This document shows positions 14,733 to 53,553 of a stretch of DNA of 64,000 bases, one piece after another. This DNA comes from Methanothermococcus sp. Ax23 (GTDB lineage: Archaea > AGJL01 > Methanococci > Methanococcales > Methanococcaceae). The first letter of the stretch is position 1. The number at the start of each line of letters is the position of its first letter. The notes beneath the pieces are model-generated. The model saw only the letters and a program-made list of their open reading frames with translations, was not told where the DNA came from and made no database searches. The position numbers and the translations under genes are program-made. The DNA is taken from NCBI RefSeq assembly GCF_049075655.1, contig NZ_CP157522.1, positions 320,001-384,000 of the forward strand. The letters run 5' to 3'.

Positions 14733-14980
14733 TTATATCTTAGAAAAGATTTGTAAGTCCTGCATATACTTCTAGGGACTATAACGCATCCAATATATTT
14801 TATAACAAAAACTAATATAAATATTTTTCGTCGGATTTCCGAGCGATAGCGAAGGAAAGTAATGAAATGCGAAGCATTTCATCTGATTTCATCTCCTCCC
14901 TTACGGAAGGGGATGTCTGAGCGATAGCGAAGACATTTATAAATTCCGAAGGAATTTATCAAACTTCCCGCCGACATTAG
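14642..14980 (-). mobile_element. Non-autonomous IS200/IS605 derivative (LE + omegaRNA/RE, no ORF) related to the tnpB element at 16373-17786
   Basis: 14700-14732 is the exact reverse complement of 17600-17632. The RE ends GAGTAATTCAC like 17776-17786. The LE hairpin CCCCTTCC-GTAA-GGGAGGAG resembles 16390-16409. Both are preceded by TTTTAAC. Confidence 0.85.
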
Positions 14981-15024
14981 TTAAAAAATAAAAAAATTAG
15001 ATGTTATTAATAAATACTATTAAT

Positions 15025-16170
15025 TTATTCCATGTCTCCCCTATCTCTTACACTATCCAATTTTTTAACTTTTTCAGCATCTACAAATCTATCTTTTAAT
15101 GTTTCCAATATCTGTGGAACGGATGTGTATTCCATCATAGCTTCTGGCAATCTGTGAGGCTGGAATGGTCCCATGCTTCTTATCATGTCTGCCATATCCA
15201 ATGCTTTCTGTCTTGCATTGTCGAATGAAATATCTGCGAATAAGTCATTAGGTCCTACCAATCTTCCTTCTGAGAGCTGGAATCCTAATGCCATTACTCT
15301 CGCAGGACCATCGAATCTTGAAGGTCTTGCGTCATCTTCACCAACAGGCATTAACGGTCCCCAGTGGCATCCTCTCATCCATCCTGGAACAAGATGTGGT
15401 ATTGCAAATGCCTCTAAAATTTCTCCAACTGCTGGCATACCACTCTGAGCTCTCACAATTGCAACAGGGTCGTCTTTACCAACATATTCACCAGCTATTT
15501 TATTCAATTTTTCGGAGCTCGCTATTGCTGCAATTTCATTATCTTTTGCTCTGAATACTCTTTTTACAGCATATTTTTCTAAGTTTCCGATTAATGCCAA
15601 TAAGGAGTAGGATTCTTCTGGTGTTTTTAAGGTAATTTGTTTGTTTTCATACATGTCCAATACATCGAATTTAAATCCGCCAGTCATGGATTTATCATAA
15701 ACAAGACCTGCTGTATGGAATGGGTCTGCAAACATCTTGTAGAATGGCATGTTGAATGCTGTTGGGTCTGTTTTATCACAGCAAAATACTATTACAGGTT
15801 CGCTTGGTCTTTCAACAAATTCCATTTCAGCACATCCTGGTCCCATACCTTTTACATTTCCTGTAAAACCTTCTGCAAGTAAATCCTGACCTGCACCATA
15901 TAATTTTAATTCCTTTGCAACTTCTGTTGCTTCTTCAAATGCTTTCCATGCCAATCCATGTATTTTTTCATTATCTGTTCCAAGCTTATGGGTCATGATT
16001 AAGTCTATATCATCCCCACATCTTGTAACATAATAATCAATCAATAGCTCATCGATAGCTTCTTCAAGAACATATTCACATGCATCCAACAATTCTTCTG
16101 GTGCCAATGTGTGTCCGCACAATCCTCCAACATCCGCTTTGATAACACTTAGAGTTATTTTTTCTTCCAT
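15025..16170 (-). CDS. fbp: Fructose-1,6-bisphosphate aldolase/phosphatase (class V)
   Basis: SVIKADVGG, LYGAGQDLL, YVGKDDPV, GWMRG, RFDGP. Confidence 0.95.
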   Translation of the reverse strand: MEEKITLSVIKADVGGLCGHTLAPEELLDACEYVLEEAIDELLIDYYVTRCGDDIDLIMTHKLGTDNEKIHGLAWKAFEEATEVAKELKLYGAGQDLLAEGFTGNVKGMGPGCAEMEFVERPSEPVIVFCCDKTDPTAFNMPFYKMFADPFHTAGLVYDKSMTGGFKFDVLDMYENKQITLKTPEESYSLLALIGNLEKYAVKRVFRAKDNEIAAIASSEKLNKIAGEYVGKDDPVAIVRAQSGMPAVGEILEAFAIPHLVPGWMRGCHWGPLMPVGEDDARPSRFDGPARVMALGFQLSEGRLVGPNDLFADISFDNARQKALDMADMIRSMGPFQPHRLPEAMMEYTSVPQILETLKDRFVDAEKVKKLDSVRDRGDME

Positions 16171-16372
16171 ACAATCACGCTCTCTTTTTTATTTTTTCTT
16201 TTATATTTTTTCTATAATCTTGGTTAATAAGGATTTCACACGAAAGGGTGAAATTTGTTTACGGGCATTTTTTATTTTAATTTATCCAAAATCAATATAT
16301 CGTTTAAAAATATTTATACTTAATGATTTCGTTGATAAGGTATATTCCATATTTATAATTTTCAAATTTTAA

Positions 16373-17786
16373 CATATTCCGCAAGAAGTCCCCTCCCGTA
16401 AGGGAGGGGATGAATTATGATAAAAACCTTCGGTTTTTATATATTTCCTTCGCTTCGCTCGGAAATGCGGGCATTATTTATATATAGCATAAGTAGCAAC
16501 ATACTATTTATAAGTTATCAAACTGTGAGGCAAATGTTGAAAAGGACTTATAGGTTCAGAATTTATCCTTCAAAGAGTATCCAAAGAACAATAGAGGAAC
16601 ATCTAAATATATGTAGATACCTCTATAACTATCTTTTGGAACAGAAAACCAAAAATCCAAAACTAAACAAAATGAATACTCAAAAACTAATAACCGAACA
16701 TAAAAAGGAAAATCCTGAACTTAAAAAAGTCCATTCAAAAGTCCTTCAAATGGTAAATAATAAACTCTGGGGAAACCTCAAAGCATTAGGCAAACTAAAA
16801 CAGAATGGGCATAAAGTCGGTAAGTTAAGATTCAAATCATCAAAGAATCGATATAAAACATTAGAATACAATCAATCAGGTTTTAAGATTAAGGATAACA
16901 AACTTCACCTATCTAAGATAGGAGAAATTCCTATAAAACTACACCAAAACATTAAAGGAAAGATTAAAAGTGTAATCATAAAAAAAGAACCAACAAACAA
17001 ATGGTTTGCTTTCTTCCAAGTTGAGGAAGAACCTAAACCACTGCCTAAAACTAATAAGGTTGTAGGTATCGATTTAGGAATCGATGGTTATACCATCGAT
17101 TCAGACGGGAACAAGTTTGAAAATCCAAAGTTTATAGATAAAACATTGGATAAAATAAAGAGAGTCCAAAAGAACCTATCACGAAAGGTTAAAGGTTCTA
17201 ACAATTGGAATAAAACTAAACTAAAACTTATCAAGGTTTATGACAAGTTAAAGAATCAGAAAAACGATTTTCTACATAAACTATCAAGATATTACATAAA
17301 TAACTACGATAAAATAGTTTTAGAGGACTTAAATATAAAATCAATGGTTGAAAATGGAAAAGGTAAGACCTTAAACCGTCATATTCTTGACAGTTCTTGG
17401 AAAAAATTTATAAATCAACTTCTCTACAAGGCGGAGGGTGCTGGTAGAGAAGTAATATTAGTAAATCCGTCTTATACTTCCAAAAAGTGTTCCAACTGCG
17501 GGCATGTTGTTAAAGACTTAAAACTTTCAGATAGAACCTTTTTTTGTCCTGTCTGCGGTTGGAAAATTGATAGGGATTATAACGCATCTCTAAATATATT
17601 AAAGTCAGGGCTGGGAGAGTCCGTTGTGCCTGCCGAGAGAAAACCTCTACTCCAAACCATTTCTTATAAAGAAGTGGTTTTGGGGCAAGTTTTCTCAATG
17701 AATCAGGAAGCCTTGCCCGAAGGGCGAGGGCTACGAAAACCGAAAGGTTTTCGTTTAACCCCGTCCGTAAGGGCAGAGTAATTCAC
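16373..17786 (+). mobile_element. IS200/IS605-family (IS1341-type, tnpB-only) element 1
   Basis: LE hairpin TCCCCTCCC-GTAA-GGGAGGGGA after TTTTAA(C); RE hairpin ending TCAC; no tnpA; left boundary uncertain by 1 nt. Confidence 0.85.
16534..17781 (+). CDS. tnpB: RNA-guided endonuclease TnpB
   Basis: TYRFRIYP, RuvC-I GIDLG, RuvC-II LEDL, Zn finger CSNC/CPVC, RuvC-III DRDYNAS. Start moved to 16534 because the ATG at 16417 lies in a hairpin insert. Confidence 0.93.
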   Translation: MLKRTYRFRIYPSKSIQRTIEEHLNICRYLYNYLLEQKTKNPKLNKMNTQKLITEHKKENPELKKVHSKVLQMVNNKLWGNLKALGKLKQNGHKVGKLRFKSSKNRYKTLEYNQSGFKIKDNKLHLSKIGEIPIKLHQNIKGKIKSVIIKKEPTNKWFAFFQVEEEPKPLPKTNKVVGIDLGIDGYTIDSDGNKFENPKFIDKTLDKIKRVQKNLSRKVKGSNNWNKTKLKLIKVYDKLKNQKNDFLHKLSRYYINNYDKIVLEDLNIKSMVENGKGKTLNRHILDSSWKKFINQLLYKAEGAGREVILVNPSYTSKKCSNCGHVVKDLKLSDRTFFCPVCGWKIDRDYNASLNILKSGLGESVVPAERKPLLQTISYKEVVLGQVFSMNQEALPEGRGLRKPKGFRLTPSVRAE

Positions 17787-17921
17787 TGGATATGGATGTA
17801 ATTTAGTATATATTGTATTTATTATATTATGGGTTTTAGGACAATATATGAATATATAAATAGCGGCTTCCATAATATATTTAACTGACATATATGTTCA
17901 TCGACTAAAAAAGGGGAGATT

Positions 17922-18944
17922 ATGCAATCGTTTAAAATCGCAAGAATTATGGGAATTCCAATTGAACTTCATATTACGTTTATTTTACTTCTAATGCTGG
18001 TATATTATCTTTGGGGCATTGGGGGCTTTATATTATATGTATTTCTATTTACATCAGTAGTTTTGCACGAATTAGGTCATTCATATGTGGCTAAAAAATA
18101 TGGAGTATATATAGAAAAGATTCTTCTTCTTCCAATCGGCGGAATGGCTATGATGGATAGAATTCCCAAAGAAGGGGAGTTTAAAATAGCCATTGCTGGA
18201 CCTGCTGTAAGCATTATTTTGGGAATTTTATTCCTGGGCCTATCAAATTTTATGGATTTCAATATTTTAAAAATTGATAATATGGTATATCCATTATTTA
18301 TGACAGTTGGAGTGTTAAATTTTATGCTCGGGATATTTAATTTACTTCCTGCATTTCCAATGGATGGTGGAAGGATATTGAGAGCTCTGATTTCACATAA
18401 AGTAGGTTATATAAAAGCCACAAAGATTGCATCCACCATTGGACAGTATCTTTCATTTATTATGCTTGGTTTTGGTATTATATCGTTAAATATTATCTTG
18501 ATTTTGATAGCTCTGTTTATATACTATGGGGCTTCTCAGGAATATAGTGCATTACTTGCCTATGATGTATTCAATAAAATAAAAGTTAAAGATATAATGT
18601 CAAAAAATATCGTATCGGTTTCGCCAGAAGATTCTGTTAAAGATTTGGTGGATTTAATGTTTAAATACAAATATCTGGGTTATCCCGTAATTAAAAATGG
18701 GAAACTCGTGGGTAGCGTTTCTTTTGACGATATAACAAATGTTGATGAAAATATATTGGTAAAAGATATTATGACTCCCCCAGTTATAGTGCCTGAACAT
18801 ATGGATTTAAACGACCTTTTGCTTAAAATAAATAATTCTGAAAGGGTTTATGTTGTAGATAACAATGAATTAAAAGGAATAATCTCAAAAACAGATGTGA
18901 TTAGAATATTGAAACTATTGGGACTAAAAAACAATTATAAGTAA
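17922..18944 (+). CDS. Site-2 protease (M50) with CBS domains
   Basis: HELGH, AGP, NLLPAFPMDGGR, C-terminal CBS pair. Confidence 0.93.
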   Translation: MQSFKIARIMGIPIELHITFILLLMLVYYLWGIGGFILYVFLFTSVVLHELGHSYVAKKYGVYIEKILLLPIGGMAMMDRIPKEGEFKIAIAGPAVSIILGILFLGLSNFMDFNILKIDNMVYPLFMTVGVLNFMLGIFNLLPAFPMDGGRILRALISHKVGYIKATKIASTIGQYLSFIMLGFGIISLNIILILIALFIYYGASQEYSALLAYDVFNKIKVKDIMSKNIVSVSPEDSVKDLVDLMFKYKYLGYPVIKNGKLVGSVSFDDITNVDENILVKDIMTPPVIVPEHMDLNDLLLKINNSERVYVVDNNELKGIISKTDVIRILKLLGLKNNYK

Positions 18945-18963
18945 AAATAAAAATTAAATTAAA

Positions 18964-19140
18964 TTATTCATTTTTCTTCCATTCTGTGTATCCGCATTTT
19001 CCGCATGCGTATCTGTTTAAATGTTCAGCCATGAACACACCAGGACCGCATTTTGGGCACACTTTTTTTATTCTTTCTACGCTGTCTCCTTCAACTTTGT
19101 AGTATTTGTATTTTTGAACGCCTGTATTTTTTGTAGCCAT
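18964..19140 (-). CDS. rps27ae: 30S ribosomal protein S27ae (58 aa, not in ORF track)
   Basis: Translated by hand: [58 protein letters not shown]. Confidence 0.95.
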
Positions 19141-19451
19141 TATTCTCCCTCCGCTTCAATTTCTTCTTTTTCTTCTTCAATTTTATTTTTTTCTAAAACT
19201 GATTTCTTTTCAATTAAATTCATCATTTTTTCGTCGTTGTATATTTTTGCATATCCATTGGATTCCATTTTACCGAATTCCTGATTAAGCGTATCTACTA
19301 TAACCATGTTTTTATCTGCATTTAACATTGCAACGAGTTTCATCTTTACATCTTTTATTGAAGGTGTAGCTCCTTCATATTCTACTAGGAATTTAATTTC
19401 CCTTCTATTTAATAATGGATTTTCTCTGTCTGAAATTATTTTTATCTCCAT
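19140..19451 (-). CDS. rps24e: 30S ribosomal protein S24e
   Basis: [21 protein letters not shown]. Confidence 0.96.
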
Positions 19452-19695
19452 GACCATCACCATGATATTTTATGCAAATGTTTGATATAATATAAAAAGT
19501 GTAATTTTTAGATATTTAATATATAATATTTTTTATGTTAAAATCTTTTATATATTCTCAGATTTTTCACCGAATGTTTAGATTATTAATTCATCGGTTA
19601 TATAATATTTAATAGTTTATATTATTATCCTTTTGAAAGGTTTTAACATAACTTCAAATAAGTATGGACATATAATTATTTATTATAATTATTTA

Positions 19696-20172
19696 TTATT
19701 TTTCATCCATCATACTTAATATTTCATCTATTTTAGTCTTCAAATCCTTGTTTATTTTTAGCAATACTACGCCTTCATCAGGTTGTCCATACAATACAAT
19801 AGTATCCTCAGGAAAATATTTGATAACAGGTATGGTGAGCAAATCTTCTTCACCATCTACCTTTAAAGCAACATTTTCATTGTTTTTTGTGGAAAGGTAT
19901 TTAATTTTTTCCATGGCTTCATCAGATATACATCCCGGAGGATTCTTTATTTCAAAAACCTTTTTAAATTTGTGGCTTATATCCACAGAGATATCTCTTT
20001 TAGTTTTTAAATCGAAAATTGATAAATTTGGTATTATGTTTTTTGATAAAAGATTTTTTGTAGTAATATCACCAATAGAAACGACCTTTCCATTTATAGG
20101 AGGTAGTTCTTTATATACTTTTCCAAAGGGTTTTTTAAGTATTTCCCTTAATCTCTCAGTTAATATATACAT
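19696..20172 (-). CDS. GTP-dependent dephospho-CoA kinase (DUF359)
   Basis: IGDITT, D.KTKR, NPPG, VDGEEDL, YGQP.EG; conserved rpoE-s24e context. Confidence 0.88.
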
Positions 20173-20196
20173 AATGTCCCTGCTCTATGTAAATTT

Positions 20197-20373
20197 TCAT
20201 TTTACACTTAATGCATATTTTCCTTTGCAGTCTGCCTTAATCTTTTTGGCAACTTCTGAGTTCAAAGGGTCCAATATAATTAAAAGACCTCTCCAATTTT
20301 CAGAAGTTTCAGAGCCGCAAAGAGGGCATTTATCTTCATTGGTTAAATATTTACACCTTAAACAAGCATTCAT
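20197..20373 (-). CDS. spt4: Transcription elongation factor Spt4 (RpoE'') (58 aa, not in ORF track)
   Basis: Translated by hand: MNACLRCKYLTNEDKCPLCGSETSENWRGLLIILDPLNSEVAKKIKADCKGKYALSVK. Confidence 0.93.
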   Translation of the reverse strand: MNACLRCKYLTNEDKCPLCGSETSENWRGLLIILDPLNSEVAKKIKADCKGKYALSVK

Positions 20374-20438
20374 AAATAATTCACCTTGTTTATATTGGAT
20401 TTGTTATTTTACTATTATTTAATTTCCTTCATCATCAT

Positions 20439-20996
20439 TCATTCTTTTTTCTTCTTTTTGTCTTCTTCTATCCATTCTAATTTTCCCAATCCTGGCTGTC
20501 TCATGGTTAGTGCTATTTTACTACCTCTCTTTCTAGCCTCTCTTAAACTGACTGCTACAATTCTTGCTCTTACTTTATCTCCTTTTTCAATTACTCTTCC
20601 AGTTTCTTTTCCAATTATTGCCTCTCTTTTTGGGTCATAGGATACATAATCATCCATAATCTGGGATATGTGTATAAGCCCGTCAAGAGGTCCCAATCTT
20701 ACAAAGACACCGAATTCCACGACATCAACAACTTCCCCTTCTACAACTTCGTAGAGCTCCGGCATATAACATAAAACATCGAAAACTGCTGGGTGGTATG
20801 CTGCACCATCTCCATAAATTACCTTACCATCTCCAATTTCTCGTATTTCTCCGATTGATAATATAAATCCCATATCTTTATCAAGTATGCCCTCGTATTT
20901 TTCCATAAGTATTTTGTGTAGGGACTCGTTTAGCGGAGCTCCGAACATATATGGCGGAACTCTTACGGTATCTGAAATAGTTACTAATCTATACAA
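20439..20996 (-). CDS. rpoE1: RNA polymerase subunit E' (Rpo7)
   Basis: VRVPP..FG, GDGAAY, S1 domain, MRQPGLGK. Confidence 0.96.
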   Translation of the reverse strand: MYRLVTISDTVRVPPYMFGAPLNESLHKILMEKYEGILDKDMGFILSIGEIREIGDGKVIYGDGAAYHPAVFDVLCYMPELYEVVEGEVVDVVEFGVFVRLGPLDGLIHISQIMDDYVSYDPKREAIIGKETGRVIEKGDKVRARIVAVSLREARKRGSKIALTMRQPGLGKLEWIEEDKKKKKE

Positions 20997-21317
20997 ATAA
21001 TCACCTCATATTTTTAAATAGAGCCATTATGATAGAACCATTATACTAATTATAATAATAAATATATTATATGCAAAATGATTTAAAATTAGAAATTTCT
21101 AAAAAAATCAAATATTTTTAATGTTATTTCCTTGGAAATAGTAGAATAGAAAAGTCAAGGTATTTTATACTAAAATAATATGTATTATTTATATGTTATA
21201 TATGTTATTGTATATTTATTTTATTCATATTTTAAATATTTTTTAAATATTACTTAATTATTTTACAAATAATATATTAATTTTATAATATATAAACTCA
21301 ACGATTTTGGTGAGATT

Positions 21318-22970: not shown

Positions 22971-23079
22971 ATACCATTACAGATATATTTAATCAAAAAT
23001 AAGCATTACTCTATAACTAAAACATATGATAAAAAATAAAAAAAATAAAAATAAAAATAAAACATTAAAAGGTGAAAAA

Positions 23080-23733: not shown

Positions 23734-23779
23734 AAAATAAAATATCAATTTATTTTTTTATAATATTTTCAGTAATAAA

Positions 23780-24643: not shown

Positions 24644-24764
24644 TTATATAACCACCTTTTTTGATATTAAATATTACTTAGGTATTCAAATAATATATTT
24701 TTAAGTAATCAATAAAAAGTTTATTAACAGAAATGTTTATATGTGAGTTAATCATATTGTTTAA

Positions 24765-25049: not shown

Positions 25050-26026
25050 TAGTATGGGTCAAAATATATAAACTATACTAAATATAACATTATAAAAAAG
25101 ACGATATTATGAGGGCTGAGGAAGTAGTAAATGAGATAATTACATCAGATTTAATTGACCAAATCCCTAAACGAAGAAAGGTAGGGAGGAAAGGATATAA
25201 TTTAGAGTTGAGGCTTAAACTATTAGTGTATGCCTTTTTAAAAGGCATACACTCAAATAGAGCGTTAGTATTACACTTACAAAATAATCCACAGATTTTA
25301 ACTGCATTAGGATTTAAATCCTGCCCTGGTAGAAGAACCATCGATAGATGGAAAAAATCCCTAGATGAAGAATTGCATGCAATAATTACTTTATTAGGTG
25401 ATAAATATATTGAACTGAATAATCCTGAATGGTCAATATACGATAGCACCCCAATCAAAGACGAACAAGATGAGGATGGAAAGATAGGATATAACAGTGA
25501 AGGAATGTTTAAAGGCTTCAAATTACATTTAGCAGTGGATAAAAAGGGGATACCATTAAGAGCAGAATTTACCACAGCAAATACTCATGATTGTAAAGTG
25601 GCTGATAAATTATTAGTATGCACTAAGAAATCCTGTGCAGATGCGGGTTATGATTCAAAAGATTTAAAAAAATTTCACAAATCCTTTGGATTTGCTTATT
25701 TCCTCGCTATCGCTCGGAAAAGCCATGGAATTATACCAAAACGAACTAATAACTGCCCACAATCCAAGAAGATTAGGTAAGAAAAATAAAAAGAAACTTC
25801 CGAAGGAAATTTCTAAGATAAGAGTTAAAATAGAACATACCAATTCGATATTAAAGAACAGATTTATGAATAAGTTTTGGATTAACATTAAAGGCTATAT
25901 CCGTAAAAAAGTATTCTGTCTCTGTGCAGTGGCTTCTGCACAGGTTTTAGCGTTATATAATCTCATTACCAGAGGTTACCCTTATATGAAAGTCTTAGAG
26001 GTTAGGGTGTAATATGACCCACACTA
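25050..26026 (+). mobile_element. IS5/IS982-like DDE insertion sequence
   Basis: TIRs TAGTATGGGTCA / TGACCCACACTA (11/12). 11-bp direct repeat TTATTATTTAA at 25039-25049 and 26027-26037. Confidence 0.85.
25109..26012 (+). pseudogene. DDE transposase frameshifted by a hairpin insertion at about 25673-25721
   Basis: IYDSTPI, GFKLHL, ADAGYDS in ORF1; RVKIEHTNS in ORF2. Removing 49 bp fuses them into about 284 aa. Confidence 0.85.
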
Positions 26027-26029
26027 TTA

Positions 26030-37512: not shown

Positions 37513-37583
37513 ATCCGCAACTTTTGTTGCAGGCTATGAAAATCCTTCGGATTTTCATTTAATTAGTCGTTGGGCTAGGTCAA
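37513..37583 (+). repeat. Double-hairpin unit plus IS200/IS605 right-end remnant
   Basis: CCGCAAC-TTTT-GTTGCAGG and ATGAAAATCC-TTCG-GATTTTCAT, then TTAGTCGTTGGGCTAGGTCAA (compare 45269-45289). Confidence 0.7.
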
Positions 37584-37584
37584 A

Positions 37585-38934
37585 TTATCCATTCAACCCT
37601 TCAATAATCCTTTTTATCTCTTCGATTTTTTCGTTCATAAGCTCCTCAGTATCAGCCTCCAAATTCAATCTTAAAAGCGGTTCTGTGTTTGAAGGTCGGA
37701 CATTAAACCACCAATTGTCGCAGTATATAGATATTCCATCGATTTCTTCAATTTTGCATTTACTGTATCTATTTTTTAGCTCATCCATTATCAATTTTTG
37801 GTCTTTTACCTTAAAGTTTATCTCTCCGCTGTGGAAGTATTTTTTATACTCCTTCGATAATTCAGAAAGTGGCTTTCCCATATCCTTTATAGCACATAAT
37901 ATGTAATTTAAAGCAAGCAGTGGGCTTTCAAAATATCCAACTTCTTTAAAGTAAAAGTGATTTGAGAGCTCACCTGCAAATTCTGCATCTACTTCGTGCA
38001 TAAGTTTTTTTATAAAATAATGCCCAACTCGTGTTTTTATCGGAGCTCCGCCATATTTTTCAATCATTTCAGGAACAATCTTACTACATCTTAAATCATA
38101 AACTATTTTTATTTCCTTTTCATTTCCATTCTTAGTTTCCTTTTTCTCCTTCAATATCTCTATGGCTATTAAGACCGTTAATATATCCCCCTGCAAGACA
38201 TTGCCTTTTTCATCAATTATTCCAATTCTATCTCCGTCTCCATCAAATATTACTCCAATATCGCAATTTTCATTTTTAACGGCATTTATTATATCCACTA
38301 AGCAGGATTTTTTCAATGTGTCAGGCTGATGTGCAGGAAATGTTCCATCTGGGTAGTCGTTTATAAATACATGATTAGGTGCTAAATTCTTCAATATCTC
38401 CTTTTCTGCAATAGCTGTGCTTCCATTTGCAAAATCAACTGCTATTTTTATATCGCAGGATACACACCTGTTTAAAAAGAATTTTTTATAATCTGTGATT
38501 ATATCCACCTTTAATTTATCCAAATCGATTTCTTCAATTTCCTTTTTCTGAGCTTCATTTAGTTCATGTTCTTCAAAAATTGGTTTTATTTCATCTATTG
38601 GAGATATTGGAATAGCTTTTTTATCACACATTTTAAATCCAGTATATTCCGGCGGATTGTGGGATGCCGTTAAAATTACCCCCAAATCATAATTATCCTT
38701 TGTTCCAAAATACATCAATGGTGTGGATATTGTTCCAGCATAGGATACTTTTGCACCTGATTCAAGTAGTCCATATATAAATGGCTTGGTGAGCTCCTTT
38801 GAACCTATCCTTACGTCGTTTCCAACCAGTATATTTTTATACTTTTTTCCAAGGGATTTTCCAAGAGAATATGCAAAATTTTCGTCAATTTGTTCTTTAA
38901 AAACGCCCCTAATATCATAAGCTTTAAATACCAC
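37585..38934 (-). CDS. Phosphomannomutase/phosphoglucomutase
   Basis: FKAYDIRG, TASHNP, DGDGDR, GELSNH, RPSNTEP. Confidence 0.95.
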   Translation of the reverse strand: MVFKAYDIRGVFKEQIDENFAYSLGKSLGKKYKNILVGNDVRIGSKELTKPFIYGLLESGAKVSYAGTISTPLMYFGTKDNYDLGVILTASHNPPEYTGFKMCDKKAIPISPIDEIKPIFEEHELNEAQKKEIEEIDLDKLKVDIITDYKKFFLNRCVSCDIKIAVDFANGSTAIAEKEILKNLAPNHVFINDYPDGTFPAHQPDTLKKSCLVDIINAVKNENCDIGVIFDGDGDRIGIIDEKGNVLQGDILTVLIAIEILKEKKETKNGNEKEIKIVYDLRCSKIVPEMIEKYGGAPIKTRVGHYFIKKLMHEVDAEFAGELSNHFYFKEVGYFESPLLALNYILCAIKDMGKPLSELSKEYKKYFHSGEINFKVKDQKLIMDELKNRYSKCKIEEIDGISIYCDNWWFNVRPSNTEPLLRLNLEADTEELMNEKIEEIKRIIEGLNG

Positions 38935-42843: not shown

Positions 42844-42860
42844 TTATCAAATGCTGAAAT

Positions 42861-43228
42861 CTGACCTACTCCAACGAGTGAACTCGTTGGGTTCTCGCTT
42901 ACGGTAGTAAGCGAGCAACGAAATCACGAAGTGATTTCGTCTAATTTTAGCAGGGTTTAACCCTACATGGGTGGCCAAGCCCACTACCCCTATCCCCGTT
43001 TAGGAGATTCAGGGCTACGCTGTATCACTAAGATTACTCTATCAAAACAAACCACGATACCAACCACTACCAGCGGTAGAGTTTTCACTAACCCTACCCA
43101 TTAGAACTTGGACTGGTAGCGTTACTTACTATTAATCTTCTCATATTTATATTTTACTACTTACTAGCCGATATAATGTCCGCCTCTCATCCAACGATTA
43201 AAATCGTTGGCTTTCTCGGCGGTTTATC
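42861..43228 (-). mobile_element. Non-autonomous IS200/IS605 MITE copy A carrying an omegaRNA-like right end
   Basis: Near-identical to 44432-44806. LE hairpin CCAACGAT-TTTA-ATCGTTGG follows a TTAC flank. RE hairpin CCAACGAG-TTCA-CTCGTTGG ends TCAG. Confidence 0.85.
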
Positions 43229-43344
43229 GTAAAATCCCAAAATTCTAAATTTATAAGTAAAATTTTAGCATAAGGTCATGCAATTGGTTTCATTTGTTTC
43301 AAAGTATATCATTTGATAGTATCAAATTAACCAATTGCTTTATA

Positions 43345-43435: not shown

Positions 43436-43806
43436 ACTTTGTATATATTTTTCATTTAAAGTCGGAAGAAATAGTATTAAAGTGATACTTACTATAAAAC
43501 ATAGTTCGTAATAGTATTTAAAACTTATGATATTATTATTTGACAATATTTGAAACATTTGGTTCAAAAGTGTAGATGATATTATTTTTACAATAATATA
43601 GGATAATAAGTTATTTCAAAGAATTCATATTTCAACAACCTCTAACATATCATAACATTTATATATGTGTAGTATATACACAAATGTAATATCAAAGAAA
43701 TCTTTAAAAATGCGGTAGTTGATGCAGTTCCATCAAATTTAAGAATTAAACTTAAAGGGCACGGAAAAGGGTTTGAATTAGGCGATAATATAAAAAGGTG
43801 ATATTT

Positions 43807-44412: not shown

Positions 44413-44431
44413 TTTTTAGTTTCAAGTTAAG

Positions 44432-44806
44432 CTGACCTACTCCAACGAGTGAACTCGTTGGGTTCTCGCTTACGGTAGTAAGCGAGCAACGAAATCACGA
44501 AGTGATTTCGTCTAATTTTAGTAGGGTTTAACCCTACAAGGGTGGCCAAGCCCACTACCCCTATCTCCGTTTAGGAGATTCAGGGCTACCTTTTGAACTT
44601 CCAACCACTACCAGCGGTAGAGTTTTCGATAACCCTACCCATAGATACTTGGACTGGTAGCGTTACTTACTACTAATCTTCACATATTTATATTTTACTA
44701 CTTACTAGCCGATATAATGTCCGCCTCTAATCCAATCTCATAAGAGATTTTACAAAACTATGTTTTGTATAACGATTAAAATCGTTGGCTTTCTCGGCGG
44801 TTTATC
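44432..44806 (-). mobile_element. Non-autonomous IS200/IS605 MITE copy B (with 37-bp insert in LE hairpin)
   Basis: Near-identical to 42861-43228, with extra 44735-44771. Confidence 0.85.
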
Positions 44807-44989
44807 GTAAAATGTTTTTAAATAAGCATGTCGAATATATAATGTTATCATATAATCGCAAAAACCTGAGCTCGCACTATGGCAACATAAAAATCAAATG
44901 GATTAGGGATATAGTCTGTATTAATTAATATTACTTTTAATATAATTTATTCAATATATCATCGTTAAATTAACAGGTTTATTTTTTAC

Positions 44990-45289
44990 CGGCCATGTGG
45001 ATTTAACAAAAACCTACGGTTTTTATTACTGTCCTTCGCTATCGCTCGGACATCAGATAAAATTCCTTGGAATTTTATTACGTTCTTCACTACGTTCAGA
45101 AATCTCAAAACCTTCGGATTTTTTCGATTTACTCATTTCACTCATAAATTAGATGAAAACCTTCGGTTTTCATTACTTTCCTAGCTATCGCTCGGAAATG
45201 CTACAAAAACGAGGTTTGTTCAACCACGAGTGGCGAGTGAGCTACAAATTCCAAAGGAATTTGTTCAATTAGTCGTTGGAATAGGTCAG
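44990..45289 (+). repeat. Tandem array of about 50-bp double-hairpin units inside IS605-like ends
   Basis: Units 45003-45053, 45054-45103, 45104-45149, 45150-45199, then inverted units. Preceded by TTAC and ends TCGTTGGAATAGGTCAG. Confidence 0.75.
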
Positions 45290-45425
45290 TTATTTATATA
45301 TTGTTTATTTTCTAATTAACAACTGAAAATTTCATGATAAATAATATATATTATTTTATAAGTTTTATATAATACCACTTATTAATAGTATATTATATAT
45401 TCAAATATAAAAAGAGGGGGATATT

Positions 45426-46952: not shown

Positions 46953-47328
46953 TTCTGTATATTATATCATTATATCCATATTTTATTATTTTTAAAATAA
47001 AAAAAATAGAAAAGTATATATATGCGAGAGTATATAATTAAATGTGGGTGGCGTATACACTAATTTTAAAAAATATTATTAATAGGGGTATTAAGTCCTA
47101 TAATGGACAAAATTAATCCAGGGAGGGTTAATTTAAAACTATAAGGGATTATTTACTATCCCACTTAATACTTTAACTATTTTTAAAATAATAATATAAT
47201 TATTTTAATTAATGTTTAGAATGATTTTGCCGTTTAAAACTGTTTAGTTTTTTGTGAGTATTTGTGAGTGTATGGGAGCATTTAGTTTTCGAAATGTTTA
47301 TATAGTATTTTCATGCATAGTTTATAGT

Positions 47329-47550
47329 GTCAATCTAATCAACCCCAAGACTTTCCTAAACCTCTTTTAAACATGTTAAAACATCCAACAAATTGTCGAA
47401 TTGATGGGTGGAGCTGGGGTCCCCACGACAGGGGAGGAGACTGATGACATGCTCCCAATGAACCCAGAGGGAGATGAAGTTGATGACGCCCAAGTCCAAT
47501 GTGAGCATTTACTCACCAACGCTCACATTGGACAGACCCCATAAAGGGCA
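47329..47550 (+). ncRNA. Candidate structured non-coding RNA
   Basis: BRE/TATA GAAATGTTTATA at 47291. GC-rich stems (TGGGTG/CGCCCA, CCCC/GGGG, CTCCC/GGGAG), TGATGA motifs, 13-bp stem GTCCAATGTGAGC/GCTCACATTGGAC. Confidence 0.55.
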
Positions 47551-47572
47551 TATATTAATTTTTTAGTTTAAT

Positions 47573-48544
47573 TCACAATGTTAGTTCTTTAAGCTTTGAT
47601 ACTACTTCATAAAAGTCTTCCTCAGAAATGTTTAAAACATCCATTTTCTTTATTTCAACCACAATGCCACTTTTTAATATTCTTTCATATATTGGACATT
47701 TGGTAATTACGGATTTTCCATTGTCTAATTTTATAACTGAGTTTATATTTTTAGATATTTCTTTTGGGTTGTTATATTCTAAAAATACGCATACTCCTTC
47801 ATTATCTTTAAAATAGGCATTTTCAAATTCATTTTTTAAAATATTTGAAAATCTAACACATTTTTTATACGTTTTTTTTGCTTTGATGGTTTCTTCCTTC
47901 ATTAAACCATAGATATTTGGAACTTTATATGTTTTCAACAGGTTTTTTAAATCATTTATTTTGTTTTTTTCAATTAACTGTTCACTTATTTTATCACTTA
48001 TTCCTATGAATCCACCATACTCACAATTTATTATTTTTGGGGAGCCCGTTGAACAAACTACCATGTCTCCATACCCACAATCTCCACCAATACCTCCTGA
48101 AATGTCCTCCACGAATATAACCTCGTTTTCTTCACAGATTTTTTTTATTTCCTTCAATGGTTGATGTGCTAAGTATCCTGCAAGGGATGTTAAAAACAAC
48201 GCATGTATATTATTTTTTTTAATTTCTTCATCCAATGTATTTATATCAACAATACCATAATTTGTTCGGAGCTCTACAATATTAAAATTAAACATTTTTG
48301 GATAAGTCATAAAACCTTTCCATCCCCCCATATCTGGAACAAGAACATTACAGTTGCTTGAAGATGTGTCTATAATGTTGTATAATATATTTGAAGCAAC
48401 ATATATTCCAGCATTCCCAGAGGGAAGAATGGATATATTTTTTTTAGAATACATTAAATCATTTATTGCATGCTTTAACTCTTCAATATTTCCTTCAACA
48501 TTTAATCTTCCTTCTAAACATGGTTTTCTATGAGGGACTATCAT
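47573..48544 (-). CDS. Uncharacterised PLP-dependent transferase (fold type I, DegT-like)
   Basis: VPDMGGW, VEDISG, STGSPK..N..GGF. Confidence 0.6.
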   Translation of the reverse strand: MIVPHRKPCLEGRLNVEGNIEELKHAINDLMYSKKNISILPSGNAGIYVASNILYNIIDTSSSNCNVLVPDMGGWKGFMTYPKMFNFNIVELRTNYGIVDINTLDEEIKKNNIHALFLTSLAGYLAHQPLKEIKKICEENEVIFVEDISGGIGGDCGYGDMVVCSTGSPKIINCEYGGFIGISDKISEQLIEKNKINDLKNLLKTYKVPNIYGLMKEETIKAKKTYKKCVRFSNILKNEFENAYFKDNEGVCVFLEYNNPKEISKNINSVIKLDNGKSVITKCPIYERILKSGIVVEIKKMDVLNISEEDFYEVVSKLKELTL

Positions 48545-48735
48545 TAAATCACCTTTTCATACATTTTATTTAGTATTGATATAATGTATAAAATTTATTA
48601 GAAAAATTCATACCAAGTTTTCATTTAAATAGTAGTTAGTATTCAATAACTATATATATTAGTTTTTTTAATAATATATACAACATTTTGAATAGGTTTC
48701 AATTTAAAGTTTTAACTACATAATTTGGTGATTAT

Positions 48736-49623
48736 ATGGACCCAAAGATAAGTTATTTTAAAACATTTATATCGGCTACAAGGACAAAAAGTTTTTCAAA
48801 AGCTGCGAAAAAACTAGGAGTTACCCAAGGGACCGTTAGCAACCACATATCAGCTCTTGAAAAGTATTTTGATGCCCAGTTGTTTTTAAGAACGCCCGAA
48901 GGTGTGGATTTGACTCCGGAGGGTAAGATACTATATGAAAAGGCTGAAAAAATACTCGACCATATAAACGATGCAAAACAGTATATGAGAATACTTCACG
49001 AGCATCCAGAAGGTATTGTTAGGATTGCTGCAAGTACAACACCTGGGGAACATTTACTACCTAGCATCATAAGCGAATATAAGAAAGAATTTAAAGATGT
49101 TGATTTTAATATAGAAATAACCGATTCAGAAAAGTGTTTTAAATTACTGGAAACAGGTGCAGTGGATATTATTGCAGTAGGAAATATTTATGATAAAAGC
49201 TATGAAAGTGTAGTTATAGGCAAGGATAGGTTAGTTTTAATAGTGCCACCTAATCACAATCTCGCTAAAAAAGGCATAGCAAAACTTTCAGATATTTTGA
49301 AAGAGGATTATATAGATAGAGAAGAAGGTTCAGGAACAAGGGAAATATTGATGAAGGCACTAACTGATAAAGGCTATTCAATGATGGATTTACACACCAT
49401 AATGAGTTTAGGTAGTCACTCATCAGTAATTACTGCGGTTTCAGAAGGATATGGCGTAAGTATAGTATCGGAAATTCCTGCAAAAAAAGCTGCGGAAGCA
49501 GGTTTGGTAAAAATCGTTCCAATCGAAGATTTGGACTTAACGAGGTATTTATATTTGGTTAAAGGTAGAAAACCTAGAAATCCAAGTGCCGTAAAATCAT
49601 TCTGGGATTTTGTGGGCGAATAA
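48736..49623 (+). CDS. hrsM: Selenium-metabolism LysR regulator (HrsM-like)
   Basis: LysR HTH SFSKAAKKLGVTQGTVS, ASTTPGEH, REEGSGTR; Methanococcales context. Confidence 0.75.
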   Translation: MDPKISYFKTFISATRTKSFSKAAKKLGVTQGTVSNHISALEKYFDAQLFLRTPEGVDLTPEGKILYEKAEKILDHINDAKQYMRILHEHPEGIVRIAASTTPGEHLLPSIISEYKKEFKDVDFNIEITDSEKCFKLLETGAVDIIAVGNIYDKSYESVVIGKDRLVLIVPPNHNLAKKGIAKLSDILKEDYIDREEGSGTREILMKALTDKGYSMMDLHTIMSLGSHSSVITAVSEGYGVSIVSEIPAKKAAEAGLVKIVPIEDLDLTRYLYLVKGRKPRNPSAVKSFWDFVGE

Positions 49624-49806
49624 ATATTATCGATTTATTTTTATAATATAAACATATAATATTTTTTTAGTTTTAGATTATATAAATTATATAATATTAT
49701 GCTATGTTATATTGTATTTTTCACTGCAACACCCAAATGATTTATAGGGGATGTAAAGGATAGATATATGCATTAGATAGGATATAAATAATTTTTTGGT
49801 GAAATA

Positions 49807-50550
49807 ATGTTTAAAGCCACAATTAATGCAAAGGATTTTAAAAAAATCATAGATGCAACAAGCAATTTGGTAGATGAAATCTGTTTTGAAGTAGATGAAA
49901 ATAATATAAAGGCTAGTGCAATGGACCCATCTCATGTTGCATTGGTAAGCGTGGATATTCCAAAAGAGGCTTTCGAAGAATATATCTCCGATATCCATGA
50001 TATAGGAGTTGATTTGGAGGCACTTAAAAAAATAATGGGAAGGGCAAAAACTAATGAAAAACTTACATTGGAATTGGATGAAGAAAGAAATAAACTAAAT
50101 CTTATTCTTAAAAATGATGCCATAAGGAAGTTTTCAGTTTCACTTTATGATGTGAGCTCTACAAATCTTAAAGTTCCTGACATAGAATATCCTAATGAAG
50201 TAATGATTAAAGCAGGGGCATTTGTCGAAGCATTAAAGGATGCTGAATTAGTTAATGACCATGTTTCCTTGAAAATAAGTGAAGATGGTAAGTTTATAGT
50301 TTATTCAAAAGGAGACATAAACCAAAGTGAAACAACCTATGATAATGATAGCGAGTCCATATTAGATTTGAAAATTACAGAATCTTCAAGAAGCACATTT
50401 AATTTAGCCTATTTGAAAGATATCACAAAGGCGACATCATCAGATGATGTTTTACATATCCATCTTGGTTCAGACATGCCTGTAAAAATAGAGTATAACA
50501 TAGGAAACGCAAAGATATTATTCCTTCTCGCTCCAAGAATAGAAACATAA
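49807..50550 (+). CDS. pcn: PCNA sliding clamp
   Basis: [17 protein letters not shown]. Confidence 0.96.
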
Positions 50551-50598
50551 ACTAAATAATTAATTTTGTTTTTTACTATTATACAAACGTGTGAAATT

Positions 50599-51195
50599 AT
50601 GTATAAAAAAATAATGAATACATTTTTTAATGAGCTAAAAAGCGATGATTTACTGAAGCTATCTGATGATTTCTATGATATGGTTAAAAATTACATAAAA
50701 AATCAGGAATATGAGGATGAAACAGAACTTGAACGGATAAAATATTACATTAAAGAATTAAGAAAGTTAAGATTGTATAAGGCATTTTTTGGAGATAGAA
50801 AGAACCTTCTTGAAGAGGAAAAGGAGCTCCTAAAATTAATTGAAGATATAGAATATTATGATAATTTTAAAAGTAATATAAAAAATGCAGAATGTAGATT
50901 AAAAGAAGATAGTATTTTGGATAAATATCATGAGCTCATATCTAAGAACCAAGAATTATCACATTCAGAACCAAAACCTATAAATACCCAAAAAGATATT
51001 GATATTGTAAGAGTCATTACAAGGTTCCCAGAATTTACAGATGGGAAATTCACTTATGTATTGAATAAAAACGATATAATTACATTAAACAAAAAATTTT
51101 CGAGAATTCTGGAAAAACACAACATAGTTAAAAAAATAAATGGTGGATATCATGAAGATGAAAAAGAAGATAAAAAGATATTGTCCATACTGTAA
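50599..51195 (+). CDS. GINS-family (Gins51-like) replication protein
   Basis: Follows pcn; L..L..DFY, LRLYK, C-terminal B-domain VRV...PEF.D. Confidence 0.65.
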
Positions 51196-51433
51196 AAAAC
51201 ACACACTTCACACAGTAGAAAGAGCAAAAAAGAGAAAAGCAAGTGAATTAACTTGGGGTCAGAGGCAGTTCAGAAGAGTTACTGCTGGATACGGAGGTTA
51301 TCCAAGACCTTTACCAAGTGGTGCTAAGCCAGTTAAAAAATTGGATTTAAGATACAAATGTTCAGAATGCGGAAAAATGCACGTAAGAAGCAACGGCGGA
51401 TTTAGAGCAAGAATATTTGAATTAGTAGAATAA
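51152..51433 (+). CDS. rpl44e: 50S ribosomal protein L44e
   Basis: [25 protein letters not shown]. Confidence 0.96.
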
Positions 51434-51474
51434 TTTAAAAAATATTTTAATTATTTAAATATAGAGGTGGAATA

Positions 51475-51660
51475 ATGGCATTAGTGCAAAAACCAAGAAG
51501 TAGGTTTTTAAGAATCCAGTGTCCAGATTGCGGTACAGAGCAGGTAATATTCGGATGTCCAGCAACAGTTGTAAAATGTATAACATGCGGAAAAACACTT
51601 GCTGAACCAAAAGCTTCAAAAGGATTAATTAAAGCAAAAATATTAGAAGTTTTAGAATAA
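51475..51660 (+). CDS. rps27e: 30S ribosomal protein S27e
   Basis: PRSRFL..CPDC..EQ..F, CITCG..L. Confidence 0.96.
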
Positions 51661-51687
51661 AATCTTTTTAACTCTCTTTTTTATTTA

Positions 51688-51785
51688 TCCAATCGAGCGA
51701 AGCTAGTATCGGATTTTCGAAATCCCCATGACTTTACGAAGTAATTTGTAAGATTTTTAAAGGTTTCGTTTGAATCTTCGCCTCA
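51688..51785. repeat. Degenerate hairpin-unit remnant
   Basis: CGAGCGAAGCTAG, GGATTT-TCG-AAATCC and TTAC-GAA-GTAA resemble the double-hairpin family. Confidence 0.45.
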
Positions 51786-52238
51786 CTACTTTTTATCTTT
51801 ATAGTATAATATTTATTAATTCAAATTAATAAATTTAATATATTAAAAATAATTAAAAAATAAAAAGAATAAATTATTTATTTTTATCTCCGCAGGTGCA
51901 TACAACATTTCCTTTTTTAAGTGGCGTGTGAGTTCCAAATACGATTGGTATTTCCAATTCTTTCATTAACTTCTCAGCTACTTCTTCAAAGTTTATATGC
52001 GGACATTCAGGAACTAAGAATGTGCAGTTTGCTATATGAACAGCTTCCGCACCGCTTGCGTTTTTAAGGAGTTTTACCCTCATTGGAAACCTTCTTCCAG
52101 GGCATCCGCCACATGTTGCAAATGCAACTAATTCAACATCTTTATATCTTTCAAATGTTCCGCTTTTTTCATTTATTGCCTTAAAACATGAAAAACATGC
52201 CTCTTTTCCAGGACATCCCATTTGAACCATTTTTTCAC

Positions 52239-53553
52239 GACTCATTAGGCAGGAAGCCCACGATTTCAATCGTTATACAAAACAATGTTTTGTAAAATCT
52301 CTTACGAGATGGGAGGAATGCCGTTTTTTAGCATACATCATACTTAAAACCACCAAAAACTTTTTATATATTGAATGATATACTCAATAGTATGGTGATA
52401 CCATGCTATTAACACTAAAATCTAAACTAATAACAACACCAGAACAAAAAACCACACTATTAAAAACAATGGAACGATTCAATTCAGCATGCAATTACAT
52501 ATCAAAAATAGCATTCAAAACCAAAACCTTTGGAAAAGTAAAACTACAAAAACTCGTATATTATGATGTAAGAGAAAAATACGGTTTATCATCTCAAATG
52601 GTGGTAAGAGCAATAGGAAAAGTATCAGAAAGTTATAAAACAGATAAAAAAACACTTCATAAATTCAAACCACACGGTGCAATAATATACGATGAAAGAA
52701 TACTAACAATCAAAACACCAGACACAATATCAATACTAACAATAAACGGTAGAATAAAACTACCAATCAAATTTGGAGATTATCTACCATTGGAAAATAA
52801 AAGAGTGAGAGGGCAGGCGGATTTAATCTACAAAAACGGTGAATTTTACCTAATGCTTGTTGTAGATATTCCAGAAGAGCCTCCAAACTCTTCATTTTCT
52901 AATGTGTTAGGTGTTGATTTAGGTATTGTTAATTTAGCAACTACGAGCGATGGAGTAAAATACTCGGGAGAAAAATGCACGAAAGTAAGAAAACGATACG
53001 AGAGATTAAGAGCAGAATTACAAAAGAAGAACACTTGGAGTGCTAAAAGAAAGCTTAAAAAAATAAGTGGTAGAGAAAGACGATTTAAACGGGATATAAA
53101 CCATTGTATTTCTAAACAAATCGTCATAACTGCCAAAGGCACGAACCGAGCGATTGCCTTAGAAGATTTGAAAGGCATTCGAAACGGTGGCACGGTTAAT
53201 AAGGCAGTTAAAAAACTTATTGACAGATGGGCATTCTATGAGTTAGCACAATTTATCCAGTATAAAGCAAAATTATACGGTGTTCCAGTATTCTTTGTTA
53301 ATCCACGATACACGAGCCAAACTTGCAGTAATTGCGGTCATGTGTCTAAAAATAACCGTAAAAGTCAGTCAGTATTCGTTTGTGAAAAATGTGGTTTTTC
53401 AGAGAATGCTGATGTTAATGCCGCTTTGAACATTGCCCACCGAGCAGAACAATACTATTTAGGGCTGTCCTGTCAGCCAGCCTAATGTCCTCCGCCCTAA
53501 TTATTAAGGGAGTTGGAAGGACAAGCCAACGGATTTATCCGTTGGTAGCTGAC
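52239..53553 (+). mobile_element. IS200/IS605-family (IS1341-type, tnpB-only) element 2
   Basis: Inserted 3' of TTCAC without TSD. LE hairpin CCCACGAT..ATCGT[insert]GGG. RE hairpin CCAACGGA-TTTA-TCCGTTGG ends TGAC. Confidence 0.92.
52403..53485 (+). CDS. tnpB: RNA-guided endonuclease TnpB
   Basis: GVDLG, ALEDL, YTSQTCSNCG..CEKCG, NADVNAA. Confidence 0.94.
   Translation: MLLTLKSKLITTPEQKTTLLKTMERFNSACNYISKIAFKTKTFGKVKLQKLVYYDVREKYGLSSQMVVRAIGKVSESYKTDKKTLHKFKPHGAIIYDERILTIKTPDTISILTINGRIKLPIKFGDYLPLENKRVRGQADLIYKNGEFYLMLVVDIPEEPPNSSFSNVLGVDLGIVNLATTSDGVKYSGEKCTKVRKRYERLRAELQKKNTWSAKRKLKKISGRERRFKRDINHCISKQIVITAKGTNRAIALEDLKGIRNGGTVNKAVKKLIDRWAFYELAQFIQYKAKLYGVPVFFVNPRYTSQTCSNCGHVSKNNRKSQSVFVCEKCGFSENADVNAALNIAHRAEQYYLGLSCQPA

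Follow-up and report, generated by a model that had tools for sequence, protein, structure and literature searches.

What are the short paired hairpins that lie in and beside the transposons of Methanothermococcus sp. Ax23, and how do they come and go? The question is raised by a 64-kb stretch of its genome (G000:C1:320001-384000; hereafter the window, whose own coordinates are used unless genome positions are specified), in which units of 35-57 bp recur, each made up of a short tag and two different hairpins with a linker of 2-5 nt between them. Several subfamilies can be told apart by tag and linker. A sequence-only reading of the window had described the units as minimal, structure-defined insertion modules, and that description was borne out: the positions proposed proved correct to within 1-3 nt, every unit has its two adjacent hairpins, and the stems do vary from unit to unit while pairing is kept. 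The explanation that we favour, with moderate confidence, is that the units are non-autonomous miniature palindromic elements of an order-wide family, which enter or leave their host sequences as exact modules. Because they also land in ordinary genes, they are closer to known selfish palindromes than to a parasite specialised on transposons.

Filled and empty alleles

The evidence for mobility consists of filled and empty alleles among assembled genome sequences. The Ax23 genome (G000 below, with G003-G040 denoting relatives and an outgroup) is complete, comprising 1.66 Mb at 32% GC plus a 7.7-kb plasmid (C2), and was compared with itself, all clean gaps of 20-90 nt between paralogous repeats being gathered. 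This gave 59 clean indels at eight independent sites genome-wide, all of 35-57 nt, and all 59 are two-hairpin units. The junctions at these sites are ambiguous by 0-3 nt, or by 7-8 nt at two of them, and there is no target duplication. Filled and empty alleles were found in copies of a MITE (miniature inverted-repeat transposable element), in copies of an IS4/5-type insertion sequence (IS), in autonomous IS200/IS605 elements of relatives and in two housekeeping genes.

Units in the window were located with a covariance model, R1, built from 13 in-register Ax23 units with the structure supplied by hand. This set replaced an alignment of 24 units made with MAFFT and RNAalifold, in which the variable stems were misregistered and the helix of the first (A) hairpin was missed. 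Searched unfiltered, the window contains six strong R1 matches with E-values of 5e-14 to 5e-8 (14832-14887, minus strand; 14910-14964, minus; 16415-16469, plus; 25672-25724, plus; 45001-45056, plus; 45148-45202, plus), which are strong partly by construction since the training units come from Ax23 itself. Weak matches, at E 0.004-0.03, fall at 45057-45104, 37532-37590, 42890-42944 (minus), 44461-44515 (minus), 45234-45269 (minus) and 17707-17759 (minus), and there is no further match below E 0.1 in the window. R1 does not model the separate subfamily of the units at 44735-44771 and 52274-52310. The units and their MITE hosts are as follows.

14832-14887, minus strand: AB-type unit; hairpin A is ATGAAATGC/TTC and hairpin B is TTTCC with loop TTCGCTATCGCTC; R1 score 76 bits
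14910-14964, minus strand: second AB-type unit; R1 score 73 bits
16415-16469, plus strand: AB-type unit at the left end of a TnpB-only IS (about 16380-17800); R1 score 73.8 bits
17707-17759, minus strand: unit-like double hairpin at the tnpB 3' end and IS right end; R1 score 20.3 bits, E 0.029
25673-25720, plus strand: AB-type unit of 48 nt in the A-run (putative frameshift) site of an IS4/5-type DDE transposase gene
37513-37562, plus strand: double hairpin, TGCAAC/TTTT and then ATGAAAATCC/TTC; weak R1 match at 37532-37590, E 0.005
42861-43234, minus strand: MITE copy 1, IS200/IS605-derived; unit 1 present, unit 2 site at 43194 empty
42896-42944, minus strand: unit 1 in MITE copy 1, 49-50 nt; fold z-score -7
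44430-44812, minus strand: MITE copy 2, both unit sites filled
44467-44515, minus strand: unit 1 in MITE copy 2, from paralogue gap comparison and an R1 match
44736-44770, plus strand: unit 2, 35 nt plus two ambiguous A; fold z-score -5
45001-45269, plus strand: at least 4-5 units forming an array in unique intergenic DNA; four R1 matches
52274-52310, minus strand: unit 2-type module in the left-end hairpin CCCACGAT..ATCG^TGGG of the TnpB element 52403-53485

The 380-bp MITE is a deletion derivative of an IS200/IS605 element, longer copies of which carry tnpB. Read in the tnpB direction it begins right after TTAC, with a left-end hairpin 18 nt in and a matching right-end hairpin followed by a 10-nt tail, a geometry that we take to be that of IS608. 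Unit 1 (ATTAG, A hairpin ACGAAATCAC/TTC, TGC, then hairpin TCGCTTAC/TACC) lies 5 nt internal to the right-end hairpin, and unit 2 (TCTC/ATAA/GAGA, then TACAAAAC/TAT) splits the 3' arm of the left-end hairpin at CCAA^CGATTAAAATCGTTGG. To judge from the known layout of such elements, unit 1 would sit in the region that gives rise to TnpB guide RNAs. Unit 1 (42896 and 44467 in the window) is missing from four of the 22 full MITE copies and unit 2 (44736) from five, the window copy at 43194 among them; both sites are filled in 15 copies, only the first in three, only the second in two and neither in two. MITE orientations look mixed.

A tree of the 22 full copies, made with the unit columns removed, requires at least four changes at site 1 and at least three at site 2, and zero-length branches join two filled/empty copies and one empty/empty copy. 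Because copies filled at both sites sit in every major clade, at least some of the empty sites probably arose by precise loss; the same pattern of filled and empty sites would be produced by ectopic gene conversion. A third difference among the MITEs, a segment of ~30 nt without a hairpin in four of the 22 full copies (alignment columns 165-195; 43010-43050 in copy 1 versus 44575-44590 in copy 2 in the window), is a replacement or deletion and not a unit.

The ends of the units are alike in independent insertions, with ATTAG...AAGCG at two sites and ATTGA...GCTACG at two others. There is a loose tendency for insertions to follow A-runs or GAA, but since this applies to only four of the ten events whose empty site is known, no target motif is claimed.

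Seven paralogous IS4/5 copies are empty at exactly the point filled by the unit at 25673, which lies in a DDE transposase gene in two frames (25109-26012; Pfam DDE_Tnp_1). Removal of a unit had been said to restore the structure of its host, and it does so for the units at 25673, 42896, 44467 and 44736, the last with 5-6 empty copies; no empty allele was found for that at 17711, both of whose paralogues are filled, or for that at 37513, where the locus is unique in the genome, the intergenic DNA cannot be aligned with that of five relatives and the neighbouring gene is absent there. The further statement that the transposase frame is reopened did not hold at 25673: removal restores an A8 run but no single open frame, because all seven unit-free copies also change frame there. 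Being 48 nt long, the unit is itself in frame. The two overlapping frames of the transposase (25109-26012) meet at the A8 run (GATTTAAAAAAAAGC), as in all seven unit-free copies, and the run looks like a programmed frameshift or slippage site.

In a second IS family the hairpins are GC-rich and have a GTAA or TTTA loop, and units occupy four or five positions around its left-end hairpin. Three autonomous copies with intact tnpA and tnpB were taken from the relatives G032, G024 and G015. The left ends in G032 and G024 are empty (GGGCGGTGATGAATT|AGGGGAGG) and that in G015 carries a 48-nt unit exactly at the bar, so the unit is not integral to the IS end. Other unit variants occupy the left-end point of the GTAA-loop IS in G010, G012, G029 and G037. 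The possibility that the units are fixed parts of every IS copy is ruled out by these empty left ends of G032 and G024 together with the empty MITEs.

Within the window no unit lies in a housekeeping open reading frame (ORF), as had been claimed, but genome-wide the claim does not hold, since at least nine Pfam-named non-IS genes carry a unit in frame. They encode YjeF (NAD(P)HX epimerase/dehydratase), anthranilate phosphoribosyltransferase, a P-type ATPase, an M20 peptidase, two radical-SAM proteins, a QueC-like protein, a thiamine pyrophosphate (TPP) enzyme and a helicase, the last with its unit within the LAGLIDADG (homing-endonuclease) part of an intein. The YjeF unit (48 nt, 16 residues; ISKSFGFLRFPSLRSE) occurs in G000, G003, G010 and G012, nine of the 13 aligned orthologues lack it, and its A stem has gained uncompensated mismatches in G003 and G012. 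The unit of the M20 peptidase (57 nt, 19 residues) is found in Ax23 only, being absent from eight of nine aligned orthologues, including that of G003, the nearest species, at 91% identity, and its empty site, TTAAAA|TATG, has one ambiguous base. Unit lengths are 48, 48 and 57 nt in ORFs and 37, 45, 47 and 50 nt in non-coding DNA; the multiples of three in ORFs fit a filter for translated, frame-preserving copies and argue against removal at the RNA level.

Structure and genomic setting

Folding of five units as single-stranded DNA, each strand being taken in turn, gave two hairpins in all ten cases, with z-scores of -2.8 to -7.2. The loop of the A hairpin, which had been read as a cTTCGg tetraloop, is rather a TTC triloop with a C-G closing pair. 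The second (B) hairpin often bears a TTCGCT(A)TCGCTC loop, and its stem varies between copies. With the strand of the B loop as reference, 14 of 26 non-redundant AB units have TTC as their A loop and none has GAA, so that the strand asymmetry is conserved; folding is slightly better for the strand whose loops are GAA and GAGCGA(T)AGCGA. A large subset of the units starts with a TTAG or TCAG tag, and units are found in both orientations.

The degree of pairing in the 13 units of R1 (91.6% of cells, compared with 73.7% in shuffles) is a circular test, since these units had been chosen for perfect stems. The excess of hairpins in the genome as a whole is independent evidence for structure: hairpins of the form C-NNN-G with a stem of at least 6 number 311, against 56-72 across five shuffles. 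Perfect hairpins with a stem of at least 7 number 3295, against 2074 in a block-shuffled genome, with the excess concentrated in triloops (594 against 221), and the commonest combinations of loop and closing pair are CTTCG (59) and CGAAG (51).

The density of the 311 C-NNN-G hairpins per 10 kb is 11.2 in repeats, 5.05 in unique intergenic DNA and 0.77 in unique coding DNA, the compartments resting on crude ORF calls and the figure for repeats counting copies rather than independent events. Outside repeats lie 202 of the 311. The suggestion that units target the TnpA-binding hairpins of IS200/IS605 elements stands in so far as several units lie in or beside end hairpins, but not as regards exclusivity. 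A rough count of independent events, dependent on normalisation, puts the enrichment at IS ends over other non-coding DNA at roughly two-fold. Among unique intergenic regions, the convergent ones make up 12% of the sequence and contain 19 of 82 hairpins, the divergent ones 27% with 10 of 82.

CRISPR repeats are a further setting. In the relatives G007 and G008 a unit lies within a terminal repeat, in the arrangement CATCCCAC[unit]ATGGTCTGATTTTAAC. The AB units concerned are at 1490-1640 of locus L034 (G007) and 1490-1570 of locus L036 (G008); in L034 the next repeat retains only the 3' part of the unit, and several other CRISPR arrays of these two genomes yield an identical R1 match. None of the 95 repeats in the CRISPR arrays of Ax23 has a unit, and one of its 91 spacers (C1 149489-149527) has a B-like hairpin, ATTGGC/TCGCTTCGCTC/GCCAAT.

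In the window, the unit at 14832-14887 (fold z-scores -3.2 and -3.4) is flanked by the central GTAA-loop hairpin and the outer stem's 3' arm in a truncated IS200/IS605 left end, and that at 14910-14964 lies on the opposite side of the central hairpin, inside the outer stem GTCGG..CCGAC (14831-14976). Of the two units of this locus, a paralogue (genome position 1036379) has just one and lacks that at 14832. The unit at 16415-16469 falls between a CCCCTCCC/GTAA hairpin and TGCGG, and so comes after the left-end hairpin, unlike the unit of a paralogue at genome position 199628, which is inside it. Pfam identifies TnpB genes at 16417-17781 and 52403-53485; the unit at 52274 is likewise present in both close paralogues (genome positions 77936 and 1599290). 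A remnant like the MITE right-end tail (TCGTTGGGCTAGGTCA) follows the unit at 37513, at 37566-37582, and the array at 45001-45269 terminates in another (TCGTTGGAATAGGTCAG). These solo remnants, at 37566-37582 and 45270-45286, resemble the MITE tail (TCGTTGGnnTAGGTCA), lack the 5' arm of the right-end hairpin and stand directly after a unit or array; unit arrays ahead of such tails may be the remains of decayed IS ends. Ordinary genes near units in the window, as named by Pfam, encode a CitMHS transporter, fructose-1,6-bisphosphatase, phosphoglucomutase and a hexapeptide transferase. An Rfam search of the 64-kb window at gathering thresholds gave no matches.

A separate structure also recurs in the genome, consisting of a hairpin with a TTTAAAAAA (TATA-box-like) loop, a TCCAAAAC..GTTTTGGA hairpin and then ACCTA, with examples at C1 46591, 155676, 256675, 535975 and 1600240. 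Seven identical tandem copies with a 112-bp period form an array at C1 869127-869799. The distal part of its second hairpin is variable, often with a TCGCT(A)TCGCTC loop, and in some of these structures units are inserted within the TTTAAAAAA loop. At about C1 470576-470700 a copy of ~95 bp lies between two identical 17-nt tRNA 3'-end sequences (AAATCCCTCCGGGTCCG), which looks like an integration with target duplication. B-like motifs are seen too in 43 viral contigs from IMG/VR (L071-L113; 24-148 kb, 30-36% GC), each with one near-identical locus in which two stand in tandem, TTTCCTCGCTTCGCTCAGAG and then TTCCTTCGCTTCGCTCGGAA; 36 of the 43 come from one metagenome, and the likeness may merely be that of a shared stable mini-hairpin motif.

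Distribution, candidate enzymes and rival explanations

R1 has 44 matches at E <= 0.01 in the Ax23 genome. The exact 13-mer of the B loop is confined to that genome when the 40 other Methanococcales genomes that served as relatives are searched, and the covariance model was therefore used for these. At E <= 0.01 it finds matches in 20 of the 40, in both Methanococcales families and with a patchy distribution, and at E <= 0.001 in 16 of 39. None of the seven genomes of genus g3 has a match; in genus g5 of the sister family, 12 of 17 do. When units and TnpB over the cut-off are set side by side in the 40 genomes, 15 have both, five units only, three TnpB only and 17 neither; the units-only genomes are two drafts (54% and 89% complete) and three with a single borderline match.

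The reading that we favour would have the element move as a folded single strand. The loops of one strand would form a GAA triloop and a GCGAAGC/GCGATAGC mini-hairpin flanked by G.A pairs, both of which we take to be exceptionally stable DNA motifs. If only units with intact stems were copied, foldability being selected at copying, and fixed copies in genes decayed, this would explain why the stems of young units are variable yet paired and those of old copies decayed. We tentatively propose, by analogy, that the mobiliser may be the Y1 (HUH) TnpA of co-resident IS200/IS605 elements, acting in trans as the REP-associated tyrosine transposases (RAYTs) do for repetitive extragenic palindromes (REPs). 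In its favour are the shared distribution, the absence of duplication, the single-strand logic and the example set by REP/RAYT, and it is our best guess as to the enzyme. TnpA would since have been lost from the Ax23 genome, so that the present differences between MITEs may come from precise loss or ectopic gene conversion.

Intact Y1 TnpA was found in G015, G024, G032 and the outgroup G040, and fragments in G003, G010 and G029. A resident TnpA or RAYT had been anticipated in Ax23 itself; PF01797 gave no match there, and tblastn with the TnpA of G032 found only a 23-aa remnant beside a tnpB. Ax23 thus has 21 TnpB matches and no Y1 TnpA, yet its MITE copies include some on zero-length branches; such near-identical MITEs would reflect either a very recent loss of TnpA, supply from outside or another route for TnpB-only elements. 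On the plasmid C2 there is no hairpin of the unit kind, nor is an HUH or Rep family represented among its six ORFs. Two IS607-type serine recombinases are encoded in the genome, but the junctions share no core dinucleotide. An RNA or retro route was rejected, as no reverse transcriptase (RVT_1) was found in the Ax23 genome.

Several observations weigh against the reading that we favour, and against TnpA in particular. The complete Ax23 genome is without a Y1 transposase, beyond the remnant mentioned, and despite this absence MITE copies on zero-length branches differ in unit content. The hairpins of the units are unlike the TnpA-binding hairpins of the resident IS, which are GC-rich with a GTAA loop or contain CCAACGA. 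The 5' flanks of the ten events with a known empty site show no TTAC or TTAAC target, the ends of the units no conserved cleavage motif, and a unit length of 35-57 bp is below that of the ends required by the characterised IS608. Part of the co-occurrence of units and IS200/IS605 is automatic, since such IS carry units within them, and related genomes do not count as independent samples. Doubtful is a wider picture in which the units, as pairs of single-stranded DNA hairpins of 35-57 bp built on ultra-stable GAA-triloop and GCGAAGC mini-hairpins, would be the smallest mobile DNA elements with defined ends; they would be an archaeal, thermophile-specific counterpart of REP/RAYT, moved in trans by the Y1 TnpA of IS200/IS605 or another enzyme, settling preferentially in other folded DNA, whether IS ends (TnpB guide-RNA scaffolds among them), CRISPR repeats or one another, and adding peptides to enzymes.

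Might the units spread with no transposase at all? Stable hairpins could stall replication, with microhomology-guided template switching spreading the units and slippage losing them, while ectopic gene conversion shuffled filled and empty states and quasipalindrome template switching kept the stems perfect. The small junction ambiguity with neither duplication nor target motif agrees with such a process, as do the several insertions in or beside host hairpins or A-runs and the occurrence of all four filled/empty combinations in the 22 MITEs, with some changes between otherwise identical copies, in a genome without TnpA. We nevertheless consider this, the main rival, unlikely. The same unit ends recur in independent insertions of one subfamily, which suggests defined ends over arbitrary switch points, and the mismatches in the YjeF orthologues have stayed uncorrected over about 10-20% divergence. 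Moreover, no family match occurs in the 17 genomes that are also without TnpB; the seven g3 genomes, likewise small and with comparable candidate numbers at a first look, are among them.

The sequence-only reading had instead seen the units as a dedicated hyperparasite, or a host-encoded brake, aimed at the TnpA-binding hairpins of IS200/IS605, which we regard as quite improbable. Unit 2 does split the left-end hairpin arm in two IS subfamilies, with unit 1 only 5 nt from the right-end hairpin, and four or five positions are occupied around the left-end hairpin of another family; in that family, however, most units are internal to the TnpA hairpin, off the cleavage side. Likewise, hairpin density is highest in repeats (11.2, against 5.05 per 10 kb in unique intergenic DNA) but reflects copies and not independent events, and the 202 of 311 hairpins outside repeats are not accounted for. 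The unit in the homing-endonuclease part of an intein would suit a hyperparasite, but those in at least nine ordinary genes, two of them confirmed as insertions by comparison with orthologues, would not. The notion of a brake on IS activity fares no better: most full MITE copies, 15 of 22, are doubly filled, so that spread was not halted by the insertions, and one autonomous copy with tnpA and tnpB is filled. Very improbable, finally, is that the units are not mobile DNA and that the host has selected them as functional modules, whether transcript 3'-end stabilisers, terminators or protein-binding sites. Although they are enriched two-fold in convergent intergenic regions, and the B loop motif is conserved atop variable stems and caps another recurrent hairpin family beside TATA-like sequences, the in-frame copies in enzymes decay without compensation and lie in both orientations within ORFs, their presence varies between near-identical repeats and between close species, and the window gave no Rfam match.

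Relationship to known palindromic elements

The MJRE repeats of Methanocaldococcus jannaschii are described as short palindromic repeats that are mostly extragenic, a few lying in protein genes with the frame intact (PMC2229807, PMC2996958). The units of Ax23 are likewise many-copy, mostly extragenic palindromes, and have in-frame genic copies (48 nt in YjeF and 57 nt in the M20 peptidase, as measured against orthologues, with seven more genes). The two share an archaeal order, a palindromic and mostly extragenic character with some in-frame genic copies, and the want of a known transposase. Suyama, Lathe and Bork reportedly counted in 2005, for MJRE1-3, 141 elements covering 14.3 kb, with an average length of about 100 bp. 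The units, at 35-57 bp, are shorter, the comparison being one of descriptions and not of sequences, and in view of this difference in length MJRE may be arrays of such modules. To our knowledge neither nesting in IS200/IS605 ends or CRISPR repeats nor exact filled and empty alleles form part of the MJRE description. Beyond citations of the 2005 MJRE paper, our literature search, which left supplements outside its scope, found no description of the units.

Rickettsia palindromic elements (RPE), which are bacterial and about 100-150 bp long, resemble the units in being palindromes inserted in frame in housekeeping genes and translated, and their mechanism of movement is similarly an open matter. 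The sequences are unrelated, and no link with IS200/IS605 is reported for RPE. With the REPs of bacteria, and the bacterial interspersed mosaic elements (BIMEs) and REPINs built from them, the units share short hairpins, a 5' tetranucleotide-like tag, compensated stems, arrays and a preference for the 3' side of genes, and as in REP/RAYT systems there is co-occurrence with an element family that bears a Y1 transposase. Ax23 differs in having no RAYT or Y1 gene, and its units also enter ORFs; nor is a unit an inverted REP doublet like a REPIN, its two hairpins being unlike in stem, loop and length. The 380-bp host element is itself an IS200/IS605 MITE of the PATE-like kind, and the units share its duplication-free, seamless empty sites, but lack end hairpins and a TTAC target and are ten times smaller.

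The best reading is therefore that the units are closest to MJRE, RPE and REP. Since their testable features fit MJRE, whereas the tests for REP/RAYT and for an IS200/IS605 MITE fail on points that define those groups, we place them with the miniature palindromic repeats with coding potential. To what is known of such palindromes three observations are added: as indels the units are exact modules, both transposon ends and CRISPR repeats have units nested in them, and throughout the order the units go together with IS200/IS605.

How palindromic micro-elements of the MJRE and RPE type move has been an open question since about 2000. Ax23 offers a tractable case, with a complete genome, exact unit ends and near-identical MITEs that differ only by a unit; the insertion in the M20 peptidase is younger than the split from a species with 91% identity, and the order-wide link with IS200/IS605 indicates a concrete candidate enzyme. 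The units remodel transposon ends and the right-end region from which TnpB guide RNAs would be made, alter the CRISPR repeats of relatives and add peptides of 16-19 residues to conserved enzymes. They are therefore a source both of annotation artefacts and of real protein variation in thermophilic methanogens.

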